Position numbers and translations under genes: made by a program. A stretch of DNA of 64,000 nt from Candidatus Iainarchaeum sp. (GTDB taxonomy: Archaea > Iainarchaeota > Iainarchaeia > Iainarchaeales > JAZDFD01), in contig JAZDFD010000034.1 in assembly GCA_043808155.1 (NCBI GenBank), positions 739 through 64,738 of the forward strand. The letters are read 5' to 3'. The notes beneath the pieces were generated by a model that was not told the origin of the DNA, made no database searches, and worked only from the letters and a program-made list of their open reading frames with translations. Shown in pieces: positions 6,026 through 52,850 of this stretch (positions are counted from its first letter, which is position 1; the number at the start of each line of letters is the position of its first letter).

Positions 6026-6126
6026 AACCGAACGCCCGCGAGGCTCAATCCTCGAGCTTGAGTGCACTTTCAGTAGCACATGCTCACTTCGTTCGCAAAG
6101 CCGAACGCCCGACTAGTGCGGGTGCT
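6026..6126. repeat. Orphan GC-rich modular element. Inverted copy of the tRNA-Val leader module and of tRNA-Gly(UCC) trailer modules. Internal 11-nt direct repeat CCGAACGCCCG at 6028 and 6101.
   Basis: 6034-6060 is the exact reverse complement of 11453-11479 (27/27), extending to about 49/54. 6097-6120 matches the reverse complement of 16492-16515 at 23/24. Hairpin at 6062-6079. Confidence 0.85.
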
Positions 6127-10890: not shown

Positions 10891-11304
10891 TTAATCTACA
10901 TCTTTTATGCTTTGCTCAATCGGGATTATTATTGTTCCTGATTTGTAGAAGATTGTTCCGACAAGGAATACAGCTGCCCAAAAGAATAGATTTGCAATTG
11001 GGTAAAGGAATGCTGACCAGAATTGTCTAGATGTTAATTCCCATTGCCCGCCTTTAACTGAAAGTCCTGTCATTGCTTCTAATGAATCTTTACAATCCAT
11101 ATACTGAAGTTGAACTGCAGTGTCATCAGTTGATTCTATTGTTGCAAGGCATTCAGGATAGTTTTGCACAGCGTCCCATGAATCAAACATTCCCCCGCCT
11201 GCTCTTACAAACATTAATAGAGCTGCGAAAATAATGAATGCACCAATTAATTTGGGAAGGTGTAATTTGTCGCCTCCAATCTTGAAAAACATTATTCGTC
11301 TCAT
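10891..11304 (-). CDS. small membrane protein (137 aa, N- and C-terminal TM helices, Cys-containing loop)
   Basis: Hydrophobic segments LIGAFIIFAALLMFV and LFFWAAVFLVGTIFY. Confidence 0.45.
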   Translation of the reverse strand: MRRIMFFKIGGDKLHLPKLIGAFIIFAALLMFVRAGGGMFDSWDAVQNYPECLATIESTDDTAVQLQYMDCKDSLEAMTGLSVKGGQWELTSRQFWSAFLYPIANLFFWAAVFLVGTIFYKSGTIIIPIEQSIKDVD

Positions 11305-11378
11305 AATATCACCTTTATGTTCTGTGAATAATATGCTGTAGCGGTTTATAAATTTTGCGTGAGCAAATAAATCAGGCA

Positions 11379-11475
11379 GAGCTCAATCTGTGAGTAAATC
11401 AGATGCGCAGTAGATGCGAGCTAAAGCGAGCAAGTGCTACCGAAGGTGCACCCAAGCTCGAGGATTGAGCCTCGC
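11379..11475 (+). repeat. GC-rich structured 5' leader of tRNA-Val, homologous to the reverse strand of the 6026-6126 element. TATA-like tttataaa at 11345-11352.
   Basis: Hairpin at 11434-11451. Module 11452-11475 abuts the tRNA 5' end. 11379-11388 is complementary to 11463-11473 (10 bp, one bulge). Confidence 0.8.
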
Positions 11476-11548
11476 GGGCTTGTGGTCTAGTGGTTATGAT
11501 ACCGCCTTTACATGGCGGGGATCCCCGGTTCGATCCCGGGCAGGCCCA
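11476..11548 (+). tRNA. tRNA-Val (anticodon TAC)
   Basis: Manual cloverleaf: acceptor GGGCTTG/CAGGCCC, anticodon arm CCGCC-TTTACAT-GGCGG, T arm CCCGG-TTCGATC-CCGGG, discriminator A. No CCA. Confidence 0.93.
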
Positions 11549-11603
11549 TTTTTCTTTTAATTAAAAGGAACTATTTTTAAGTTCTCATGAGTTTAACTAT
11601 TAT

Positions 11604-12341
11604 ATGTCTCCTCCATTTGAAGATCCACATAGACCAAAAGATAAATTTAAAGAGATAGAAGAAGACAGAAAGAAAACTCAAGAGGAGCGTGAAAAAGCAT
11701 GGGGTCAGCAGAAAAGAACCGGAGCGAAAAAAAAATTCAGGCTAATAACAGAGGAGTTTGACAACCCAGATGTGAGAAGCTCACTTTCAGAAGACACATT
11801 AGAAGGAATTATCAGAACACTTAACCGCTTTGGGAGTGATATGAGCAATTGGGGGGAATCGCCTCCTGTACGTGTAGGTGAAGTGCAAGTTAAAATCAGA
11901 GAAATAAGAGAATTTATACAGACCGGAAAAGTTGGCGAGGGAATACGCAAAAAAACTGAAGAGAAAACAACTGCGCCTGCAAGAGCAAGGGTAACAGGAC
12001 ATTCATGGTCAAACACAATTGAAAAGCTAAGGAAAGAAGCATTGAACTTGATGAGAAGGAAGGGTCTTCAACAAGCTTTACAATTGCTGGAGGAACGAAA
12101 AGGCAGGACAATAGAGGGCACACTTCCCGGAAAGGATATGGCAGCCTTTAATGCTCTTAAAAAAGTAATTGTTCCCATTATAGATCCTGTTATTAGGAAC
12201 TTCAAAAAACAATTCAAAAAAGCAAGAGGACGGGACCTTACACCTGAAGAAGAGCGTGATTTAACAACCGAGATGAACGGTCTGCCGGCTATGAACTTTT
12301 ATATTAATGAAATATGGAAAGAAGCGCGAAGAATGAAGTAA
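11604..12341 (+). CDS. hypothetical highly charged protein (245 aa)
   Basis: Long ORF. Antisense ORFs are shorter and low-complexity. No motif recognised. Confidence 0.45.
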   Translation: MSPPFEDPHRPKDKFKEIEEDRKKTQEEREKAWGQQKRTGAKKKFRLITEEFDNPDVRSSLSEDTLEGIIRTLNRFGSDMSNWGESPPVRVGEVQVKIREIREFIQTGKVGEGIRKKTEEKTTAPARARVTGHSWSNTIEKLRKEALNLMRRKGLQQALQLLEERKGRTIEGTLPGKDMAAFNALKKVIVPIIDPVIRNFKKQFKKARGRDLTPEEERDLTTEMNGLPAMNFYINEIWKEARRMK

Positions 12342-12694: not shown

Positions 12695-12743
12695 TACACC
12701 GAAAGGATTCGTTTGCAATCCGTGCGCCTTCGGCAGCACTGTT
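12695..12743 (+). repeat. tRNA-Gly(GCC) 3' trailer with two hairpins. The second (12722-12739, then TGTT) belongs to the shared GTGC..TTC..GCAC hairpin family.
   Basis: GGATT-cgtttgc-AATCC (12705-12721). GTGCGCC-TTC-GGC-A-GCAC followed by TGTT, as in the tRNA-Gly(UCC) trailer. Confidence 0.7.
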
Positions 12744-13704
12744 AAGCCCTTGTTTTTGTCATGAATTTTTCCGGTGAAACAGCTGGTTTTATTTTTGATT
12801 CTTTTTTCTCGTGTTTTGTGAGAACTTCATTGTAAATTGCGATAGTGCCGAAAATTCCAATTAACATTGCAAGCGGGATTGTTATTGCATTTTCAATAAA
12901 AATTAGAACTAATGAAAATATTGAACTAATGAAACCCAATCCCATAAAAGTTAACGGAGTAGTTACTAAACTTAGTGCAAAGAAAAGCATACTGATTATG
13001 GAATTAATAACCATTAAAATTACTGAAATAAGCATTGTTGCAATAAAAACTTCGAGAACTCTCCCTTCAGTCATTAACCAGCTTTCCCTTATTGACTGGA
13101 TTATACCCATGTCCTGACTCATGAAAATAGCACTGCTTAATGAAAGTCTTATTGCGTTGTAGAAATACACAACGAAATAAATCAAAAGTGAAACTATTGT
13201 GATTAAAATTCCAGCAATATTTGCAGGGCGCGGAAATGACATTAAATAAATTCCAAAAACACCTGCAACAAGAATCAATAATAATTTAAGATTAAAAATT
13301 GAAAATAACGCAGCTAAACTTTCTGCAAGTCCCAGAAGCACTAAACTAAATGCTTTTTTCCAATTGAAAAAAGGAGCTGGTAAATTTTTAGTTTTCAATG
13401 CAAAAAGATAAATCATTCCGGTTGCAAATGCAAATACAGTTCCTGCAACTACTGTGAAAATAATTATTGACATTAATAAAATTCCCAAAAATGGAAACAG
13501 AAATTCAGGAGTGAAAAAATTCATTGGTGAAATGAAACCCTGCTGTAATGTCGGGAGAAGTACAAACATTGCAAGCCCTGCAATCATTAAAACTAACAAA
13601 ACAGCTGCGAAAATCCACGCTCCTGTTATTGTCAAAACATGCTTCCATGTTTCTTTTATTTTAGTCCATGCAAAAGCAAATTTCACTACTTCTTCATAGT
13701 TCAT
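12742..13704 (-). CDS. polytopic membrane protein (320 aa, about 7-8 TM helices)
   Basis: Repeated long hydrophobic segments throughout. No family motif recognised. Confidence 0.55.
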   Translation of the reverse strand: MNYEEVVKFAFAWTKIKETWKHVLTITGAWIFAAVLLVLMIAGLAMFVLLPTLQQGFISPMNFFTPEFLFPFLGILLMSIIIFTVVAGTVFAFATGMIYLFALKTKNLPAPFFNWKKAFSLVLLGLAESLAALFSIFNLKLLLILVAGVFGIYLMSFPRPANIAGILITIVSLLIYFVVYFYNAIRLSLSSAIFMSQDMGIIQSIRESWLMTEGRVLEVFIATMLISVILMVINSIISMLFFALSLVTTPLTFMGLGFISSIFSLVLIFIENAITIPLAMLIGIFGTIAIYNEVLTKHEKKESKIKPAVSPEKFMTKTRA

Positions 13705-16405: not shown

Positions 16406-16533
16406 CTCGCCGGAAAGATCCGGCGGTGATCTGTACACCCTTCGGTAGCACTGTTGTGAACGAAGTGAACATGTGGCACTTTAGTGCCACTCGCACTAGC
16501 CGGGCGTTCGGCTTTCGAATCCCGGAGGTTGCA
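16406..16533 (+). repeat. GC-rich multi-hairpin 3' trailer of tRNA-Gly(UCC), built from the same modules as 6026-6126 and the tRNA-Val leader. Ends with a tRNA 3'-end-like fragment.
   Basis: Hairpins at 16409-16424, 16433-16451 and 16473-16490. Modules 16456-16472 and 16491-16515 match the reverse complement of 6080-6120. TTCGAATCCCGG-AGGTTGCA at 16514-16533. Confidence 0.8.
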
Positions 16534-16637
16534 TATTTCTAATTATTTCGCTTTGAATTATTCAACATAATCTTTGCCCATAAAAAAGCATCCTCTAAAA
16601 CAAAGAATAAAAAGGTAAGTTACGTAAGTCTATTAAC

Positions 16638-51995: not shown

Positions 51996-52850
51996 TCATT
52001 TCTCTTTATGTGCGAGTTTGTCAAGTGGGCTCTGAACCTTCTTCAGTTGTTCTGTTGAAACAGAGGTGTAAATTTGGGTTGTGCTGAGGTTTGTATGACC
52101 AAGTAATTCTTGAATTTTTCTTATACTTTCTCCTGATTCTAAAAGATGTGTTGCATAAGAATGTCTTAGTGTGTGTGGGGTAACATGTTTCTGGATTCCG
52201 GCTTTTTCAGAAGTTGTTTTAATAATTCTCTGAATCGTATCTACGGACAACGGTTTTCCATTTTTTTTAGAAAAAACAAAATCAGATTCATGTTTTTTAT
52301 TTTTTAAGTATTGTTTTAGGTGTTTAAGCCACTCAGTTGACAGTATGATTATTCTGTCTTTGTTTCCCTTTCCCCCACGAACCTGTGCAATTCTTTCTTT
52401 AACCTCAAGATCATTCACTTTTAGTTTGACGCACTCTGAAACCCTACAACCCGAAGAATAAAGAAATTCAACAATCAACCTGTCTCTTTTAGCTTTTGAA
52501 GCTTTTATCAAATCTTTCACTTCTTTTTGAGTAAGAACAGATGGGAGTTTTTTTGCGCGTTTTGGGCTTTTTATATCCTCCATTATTTTTTTCTTCAGAA
52601 AGCTGTGTGTGAAAAATTTTAGAGACGAATAAACCAATGCAAGCGTAGCATTTGATGTGTTGTTTTCCTTTTTATGTGCCAAGAAATTCACAATATCGTT
52701 TCTTGAAAGGTCGTCAACTGGCTTGTTTGTGAATTCAAGGAATTCCTTAACATATAATTGATACATTATGAGTGTTCTTTTGCTATAGCCTGTAATAGTT
52801 AATTCATTTTTGAAATTCAGTATAACCTCTGCATATTTGGATTCATTCAT
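51996..52850 (-). CDS. xerA: tyrosine recombinase (XerA/XerC/D-like integrase)
   Basis: N-terminal SAM-like domain. Catalytic residues in SGCRVSE (R), HTLRHSYATHLL (H-x-x-R), LGHTNLSTTQIYT (H..Y). Confidence 0.85.
   Translation of the reverse strand: MNESKYAEVILNFKNELTITGYSKRTLIMYQLYVKEFLEFTNKPVDDLSRNDIVNFLAHKKENNTSNATLALVYSSLKFFTHSFLKKKIMEDIKSPKRAKKLPSVLTQKEVKDLIKASKAKRDRLIVEFLYSSGCRVSECVKLKVNDLEVKERIAQVRGGKGNKDRIIILSTEWLKHLKQYLKNKKHESDFVFSKKNGKPLSVDTIQRIIKTTSEKAGIQKHVTPHTLRHSYATHLLESGESIRKIQELLGHTNLSTTQIYTSVSTEQLKKVQSPLDKLAHKEK

Follow-up and report, generated by a model that had tools for sequence, protein, structure and literature searches.

Palindromes in the mitochondrial DNA of Neurospora reportedly adjoin tRNA genes, an observation ascribed to Yin et al. 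from 1981. The GC clusters of fungal mitochondria vary in copy number and in presence or absence, have short flanking duplications, and merge and shuffle their modules (PMC4478555). Within the archaea, transposed tRNA introns have been described for the Thermoproteales (Fujishima et al. 2010, as far as summarised in PMC4033280). The canonical BHB motif consists of two 3-nt bulges on opposite strands that are separated by a helix of 4 bp (PMC4033280), and an extra loop in some DPANN alpha4-type endonucleases has been linked to a broader specificity (PMC5829648). The leader of a tRNA-Val gene in the archaeon Candidatus Iainarchaeum sp. can be compared to each of these systems. By itself, this Val locus only adds another copy to a repeat family. 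The family as a whole, in contrast, indicates that tiny structured repeats have settled in compact DPANN genomes, precisely at tRNA gene edges, in tRNA introns, and before start codons, and its copies give glimpses of the emergence of long leaders, trailers, and introns in tRNA genes. We consider it probable that the Val leader is transcribed, that it is made of mobile or recombining hairpin repeats, and that these repeats sit in a part of the pre-tRNA that is discarded upon removal by RNase P.

The tRNA-Val(UAC) gene is located at positions 11476-11548 of the plus strand of the window, by which we mean the whole stretch of 64,000 nucleotides that was analysed. It was identified by ARAGORN and matches the Rfam family RF00005 with 60.9 bits. 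Directly 3' of the gene follows a T-rich run (11549-11558, plus strand) that is likely the terminator, and as read from the sequence the trailer is just this T-run without structure. The next plus-strand ORF (11604-12341, between tRNA-Val and tRNA-Gly) has 245 codons. Its product does not match any Pfam family, and the metagenome contigs did not yield relatives of it. In the orthologous locus of a close relative (L213), there are just 513 nt between the two tRNAs, and these hold another ORF, which is on the minus strand.

About 130 nt ahead of the tRNA-Val gene there is a TATA-like promoter box (11345-11352, plus strand). A position matrix was derived from the promoters of 15 tRNAs of this genome that have short leaders, and with it the best plus-strand site within 230 nt upstream of the gene is at 11345/6. 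Its score of 6.7 is above the 99.5th percentile of the genome, and it is the only strong tRNA-type box in these 230 nt. Between 11353 and 11475, inside the GC-rich leader, no promoter-like site scores above 2.8. Because the best tRNA-type box is so far away from the gene, the transcript likely has a GC-rich leader of about 100 nt (predicted from the position of the box to span 11375-11475 of the plus strand, with 54% G+C compared to 36% in the flanks), and our best inference for the transcript start is a position near 11372-11380. The box is a perfect palindrome with a score of 5.2 on the minus strand, and because it is its own reverse complement it may drive transcription in both directions and also serve the divergent minus-strand gene at 10891-11304. 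The distance between box and gene is not a peculiarity of tRNA-Val. In tRNAs that do not have a GC-rich block, the best box begins 32-43 nt ahead of the mature end, while it is found at -95 to -130 in those that have one (Cys, Arg-GCG, Asp, Ala-UGC, Ser-UGA, and Val-UAC). A sequence-only reading of this DNA had placed the boxes of the other tRNAs 26-30 nt upstream. This was roughly right in that the boxes are nearby, but five of the six other tRNAs of the window have them at 32-40 nt, the box of the sixth, tRNA-Lys(UUU), being ambiguous. The box and its surroundings have been kept in L213, in which the promoter region is about 97% identical. The long structured GC-rich leader, which the same reading had proposed, is therefore supported by the sole strong box, by the retention of this box in the ortholog, and by the same displacement at the other tRNAs with GC-rich blocks.

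The 3' 60 nt of the leader (11414-11475) represent one copy of a modular repeat that is composed of three hairpins. When the leader was searched against its own assembly (DPANN-type, 1.08 Mb, 35 contigs, 35% G+C, 88% complete), about ten further matches were obtained, to the 3' half of the leader, and reading the flanks of all 41 tRNA genes revealed recurring GC-rich modules. Their order is module C, module A two to three bases later, and then a third hairpin, which is either module B or the alternative module D. This third hairpin ends only 0-2 nt before tRNA position 1 at at least ten tRNAs. In the Val leader all three modules are on the plus strand. Module C (11416-11431) forms a small hairpin in whose stem tandem G.A / A.G mismatches lie between Watson-Crick pairs, and module A (11434-11451) is a hairpin of 4 bp, one bulged U, 3 bp, and a 3-nt loop. 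Module B (11453-11475) contains a hairpin of 5 bp and a hexaloop (11459-11474), which leaves a single nucleotide ahead of tRNA position 1.

The three modules differ considerably in how they vary. Module A is a hairpin of 7-9 bp whose stem sequence changes from copy to copy. The 18-nt hairpin of the Val leader has eight identical and six near-identical copies in the genome, with compensatory changes, and other copies of the repeat carry wholly different stems at the same place. Module B immediately precedes tRNA-Arg(GCG) and tRNA-Asp and recurs at three sites without tRNA, all of these copies having no more than one mismatch, and variants of it precede the tRNAs Trp, Pro-UGG, Cys, Ile-UAU, and Glu-CUC. 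In the 11 copies of module C in this genome, four Watson-Crick pairs are paired throughout (100%), and one pair is A-U in six and G-C in five of the copies. Extending the comparison to 44 copies from about 30 genomes, the four Watson-Crick pairs are still paired in 99-100% of the copies, and the alternating pair is G-C in 24 and A-U in 16 copies. All 11 modelled pairs show double changes in the 44 copies, in an alignment that was fitted to the model and thus leans towards the structure. In addition, the sense strand folds more stably than the antisense strand in 37 of the 44 copies. Module C was considered as a K-turn or K-loop, the type of structure bound by L7Ae, and rejected, since its G.A pairs are flanked on both sides by Watson-Crick pairs and form a symmetric internal motif, without the 3-nt bulge or loop that a K-turn has immediately 5' of these pairs. 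A C/D-box sRNA was rejected as well, since the boxes are absent and there is no Rfam match. At E <= 10 the leader does not match any Rfam family except the tRNA itself, and the orphan sites do not match any.

A covariance model that was built on modules C and A detects 23 sites in the genome. Sixteen of these lie in a tRNA or no more than 150 nt away from one, although such DNA accounts for only 1.5% of the genome (binomial p about 1e-24). One site is within the intron of tRNA-Trp, and 14 of the 16 tRNA-linked sites have the same orientation as the tRNA (p = 0.004). Leaders of this type are found at about 17 of the 41 tRNAs. Elsewhere in the order, 150 genomes were searched, and 30 of them, from 12 of 31 other families, have matches at E <= 0.01. 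There, they are found in tRNA leaders, introns (a relative's tRNA-Asp intron holds a repeat unit), and trailers, and many occupy ordinary spacers between genes, frequently with a start codon right behind them. At the loci L187, L191, L192, L194, and L195 (of the relatives G128, G015, G087, G116, and G042) the three-hairpin unit ends a few bases ahead of the apparent ATG of a protein gene and not ahead of a tRNA. With respect to neighbouring ORFs, which were determined as crude stop-to-stop frames, the copies in the relatives do not show a clear orientation bias. Outside the order, the 18-mer of the variable hairpin gave scattered single matches in genome contigs of unrelated bacteria, about as many as expected by chance, and neither module B nor the C-A junction was found in viral contigs.

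Several further copies show other arrangements. An orphan C-A-B unit on the minus strand of the window (6038-6098) does not have a tRNA nearby, its module B matches that of the Val leader in every position, and an identical GC-rich word of 10 nt is found on both of its flanks. The trailer of tRNA-Gly(GCC) (window 12696-12745) contains the variable hairpin and a second hairpin in reverse orientation, so that the far end of the element points towards the tRNA. The same is seen on other contigs ahead of tRNA-Ala(CGC) and tRNA-Ser(UGA), whose leaders have the element in forward orientation. Behind tRNA-Gly(UCC) (window 16407-16535), the trailer consists of a reverse unit, a forward C-A-D unit, and a tRNA-like fragment that resembles the region from the T-loop to the 3' end of another tRNA, a pattern like the leftovers of integrase-type events. 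About 200 nt of contiguous modules (D, C, A, B, D-like, C-like, A-like, and D-like) are found at C28:26490-26700, with neither a tRNA nor an Rfam family in the neighbourhood, and represent either accumulated repeats or an RNA gene that has escaped recognition.

Comparison to close relatives shows how fast these arrangements change. Scanning metagenome contigs with the exact module B pattern resulted in three contigs of a close relative (L212, L213, and L214), in which module B is identical in 22/22 positions. L213 is the orthologous Val locus with flanks that are 84-87% identical, and its leader combines the identical module B with an unrelated hairpin in place of module A. This leader has a second TATA-like word (L213:1410-1425) immediately before module C and about 70 nt ahead of the tRNA, which in the alignment does not have a counterpart in the genome analysed here. 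L214 contains an insert of 74 nt with A'-B at a site that is uninterrupted in this genome (C1:34139-34149), and the insert has an imperfectly duplicated stretch of about 10 nt on its flanks, which was observed at this one site only. The trailer of tRNA-Asp comprises two tandem units of 58 nt here (C28:16965-17080), each of which ends in a copy of the last 10 nt of tRNA-Asp, and one unit in L212. The stem of the L212 trailer differs by two compensatory pairs, and the hairpin of the Asp leader has compensatory changes, too. As far as can be read from these alignments, the loci show insertion, duplication, and exchange of modules over short evolutionary distances. Terminal inverted repeats that are common to the copies were not found. 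The idea of a MITE delimited by both halves of the long complement in the Val leader (see below) was rejected, since these arms are missing from the other copies and the one on the 5' side is an indel of 17 nt. The genome, at 88% completeness, yielded neither a Y1 transposase of the IS200/IS605 type (PF01797) nor a reverse transcriptase, but only two TnpB-like ORFs and one Xer-like recombinase. A tyrosine recombinase is encoded on the minus strand of the window (52053-52538; Phage_integrase domain, 168.7 bits, 291-aa frame), which is probably of the Xer type; no other complete one was found in the assembly.

In the explanation that we prefer, the box at 11345 would drive a precursor that begins with roughly 100 nt of repeat modules, and the leader would be long because modules C, A, and B sit between promoter and gene. 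Spread and reshuffling would happen at the DNA level by insertion with short flanking duplications, by tandem duplication, and by exchange of modules. The repeats would accumulate in leaders, trailers, and introns, where they are harmless, and would persist there because these parts of the precursors are discarded. Ordinary RNA-based RNase P would be expected to cut off the leader at +1, and an archaeal RNase P RNA is encoded in the genome (RF00373, C26:89018-89268, 123.9 bits compared to a gathering score of 84). However, the compensatory changes between orthologs, the co-orientation with the tRNAs, and the exact abutment to +1 hint at selection at the RNA level and not at pure selfishness.

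Because the folds are maintained, one strand is preferred, and the hairpins exactly abut the mature ends, a function for the host stays alive as an explanation. The modules could be functional pre-tRNA elements of this archaeal order, for which the repeat-like spread would be secondary. They might serve as a platform for a protein that stabilises the precursor, acts as its chaperone, or orders its processing, or they might be the source of a small stable RNA. The sequence of module C is conserved across the 12 other families while the stems covary, and together with the stability of the sense strand and the third hairpins next to position 1 this is what one would expect of such elements. Nevertheless, less than half of the tRNAs have such a leader, and the tRNA-Val orthologs of related genomes mostly have short ones that are rich in AT. 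The copies at non-tRNA sites with their presence/absence differences between close relatives, the wholesale exchange of module A at the orthologous Val site, and the missing Rfam match also speak against this explanation. To our knowledge no partner protein of the modules has been reported. We therefore regard a function in the pre-tRNA as possible but, on balance, unlikely. More specifically, the three-hairpin unit could be an order-wide tag for recognition by a protein, which would mark those stretches of pre-tRNAs that are thrown away and, in the relatives, also some mRNAs at their 5' ends. Such a tag would control the stability of the precursors or the order of their processing, and the variable middle hairpin would be its address or specificity element, a proposal that we think is rather improbable.

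Alternatively, the GC-rich block would not be a leader at all but have a role at the DNA level, for example as debris of recombination or attachment, and tRNA-Val would be transcribed from a weak internal start. Fragments of tRNA 3' ends are indeed duplicated beside the units in the trailers of tRNA-Asp and tRNA-Gly(UCC), as after integrase-type events, and the palindromic box could belong to the divergent gene. However, the internal start would have to use a site that scores no higher than 2.8, the shift of the best box to -95 to -130 recurs at at least six tRNAs with modules, and the structure is strand-specific. This makes a role solely at the DNA level highly improbable.

In addition to the repeat, the Val leader contains a long complement. 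The sequence-only reading had reported a leader that closes on itself right before the tRNA, and reading the sequence from 11100 to 11700 confirmed the positions of all its motifs: the box, the two hairpins, the complement of 11379-11388 with 11463-11473 (an arm of 10 nt with one bulge), and CAAGC (11453-57), which is complementary to nucleotides 3-7 of the tRNA (11478-82). The minimum free energy structure of 11375-11475 is a long closing helix of -35 kcal/mol (RNAfold, z = -2.1), and six of 200 shuffled sequences fold as stably. Pairing of the 5' arm with the last 23 nt yields -22.7 kcal/mol compared to -16.1 +/- 2.9 for dinucleotide shuffles, 2.2% of which reach this value. Thus, self-closure of the leader is predicted to exceed chance only modestly. 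Furthermore, the three structures that had been proposed side by side cannot form at the same time. When the ensemble is calculated for the complete precursor, the pairs of the closing stem reach probabilities of 0.77-0.97, compared to about 0.001 each for the second hairpin and for the pairing of CAAGC with the tRNA. The closing stem and the conserved hairpin next to the tRNA therefore exclude each other.

Homologous loci do not conserve this stem. The 5' arm is part of a lineage-specific segment of 17 nt (11379-11395, plus strand) that is missing from the orthologous L213 leader in the alignment, and six other copies of module B in this genome do not have a comparable upstream partner (-8 to -16 kcal/mol). 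The segment has an exact inverted match of 8 nt to the loop and the 3' side of the hairpin next to the tRNA, which is equalled by 3.2% of the shuffles and is thus only suggestive of an inverted copy of module B. The closing stem would be a recent and locus-specific by-product of a 17-nt indel, which came to be inverse to part of module B by chance or by copying. Because the L213 leader can pair its 5' and 3' parts in another and weaker way (-16.7 compared to -11.8 +/- 2.6 kcal/mol, reached by 4.6% of the shuffles), some loose tendency of the Val leaders to close on themselves may exist.

Together with the pairing of CAAGC, the closing stem had also been the basis for the tentative proposal that the leader forms a BHB-like structure with the 5' end of the tRNA, and that the splicing endonuclease frees the tRNA and possibly releases a circular leader. 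The genome does encode a single EndA homologue (on contig C12, in a 180-aa frame, alpha4-like in size), and DPANN enzymes of the alpha4 type with the extra loop may accept relaxed motifs (PMC5829648), but the type of the EndA subunit counts neither for nor against cleavage of a relaxed motif here. The proposed geometry is an internal 1x3 loop, a helix of 5 bp, and a hexaloop. By the published definition (PMC4033280) it does not have the second 3-nt bulge, its central helix has 5 bp instead of 4, and a nucleotide faces the one bulge that is present. Forcing CAAGC to pair with nucleotides 3-7 of the tRNA costs 3.8 kcal/mol and breaks the acceptor stem, of which a helix presenting the BHB would displace five of the seven pairs. 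Of the two other tRNAs with the identical module, tRNA-Arg(GCG) does not allow this pairing at all and tRNA-Asp allows it only imperfectly, and a stem between leader and trailer cannot form because the trailer is a T-run. Although the closing helix is thermodynamically favoured within 11375-11475, release by an endonuclease is extremely improbable given the wrong pattern of bulges and helix, a pairing that is hardly populated in the ensemble and not formable at tRNA-Arg(GCG), the closing arm missing in L213, the lack of a leader-trailer stem, and the RNase P RNA encoded in the genome.

Archaeal BHB processing stems, as known from rRNA operons and from split or permuted tRNAs, resemble the Val leader in having a helix that ends near the end of a mature RNA. 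However, the helix here is within the leader only and does not connect leader and trailer, two 3-nt bulges at a distance of 4 bp are not present, and the helix is not kept in the ortholog. For the transposed introns of the Thermoproteales, movement from one tRNA gene to another is implied by similar short sequences that recur in the removed parts of different genes, and this is comparable to what is seen here. Measured against these introns, the Val element differs in being a 5' leader, in not being flanked by a BHB, and in belonging to a family that is also found away from tRNAs. Our literature search did not yield any description of such repeats at DPANN tRNA genes, and the element does not fit any known repeat family because terminal repeats and a cognate transposase were searched for and not found. 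By analogy, the bacterial REP/REPIN and the GC-rich palindromic clusters of fungal mitochondria seem to come closest. The REP, BIME, and REPIN elements, which are mobilised by RAYT/Y1, and the MITEs derived from IS200/IS605 are likewise non-coding, multi-copy, and intergenic with lengths of about 20-70 nt, and they share with the archaeal repeat covarying stems, conserved flanking motifs, and composites in both orientations. The differences are the Y1 transposase and the terminal inverted repeats, neither of which was found here (the former in a genome that is 88% complete), and both the flanking duplication of about 10 nt and the preference for tRNA edges and introns are atypical for IS200/IS605. 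The mitochondrial GC clusters, such as GC42 of yeast and the Neurospora palindromes, are also short GC-rich hairpin repeats in an AT-rich compact genome, and they resemble the archaeal family in the variation of copy number and of presence and absence, in the flanking duplications, and in the shuffling of modules. Compared to these clusters, the repeats described here reside in an archaeal chromosome, are defined composites of three hairpins with a conserved tandem G.A hairpin, and are co-oriented with the transcription of the tRNAs, ending within 0-2 nt of the mature tRNA ends.
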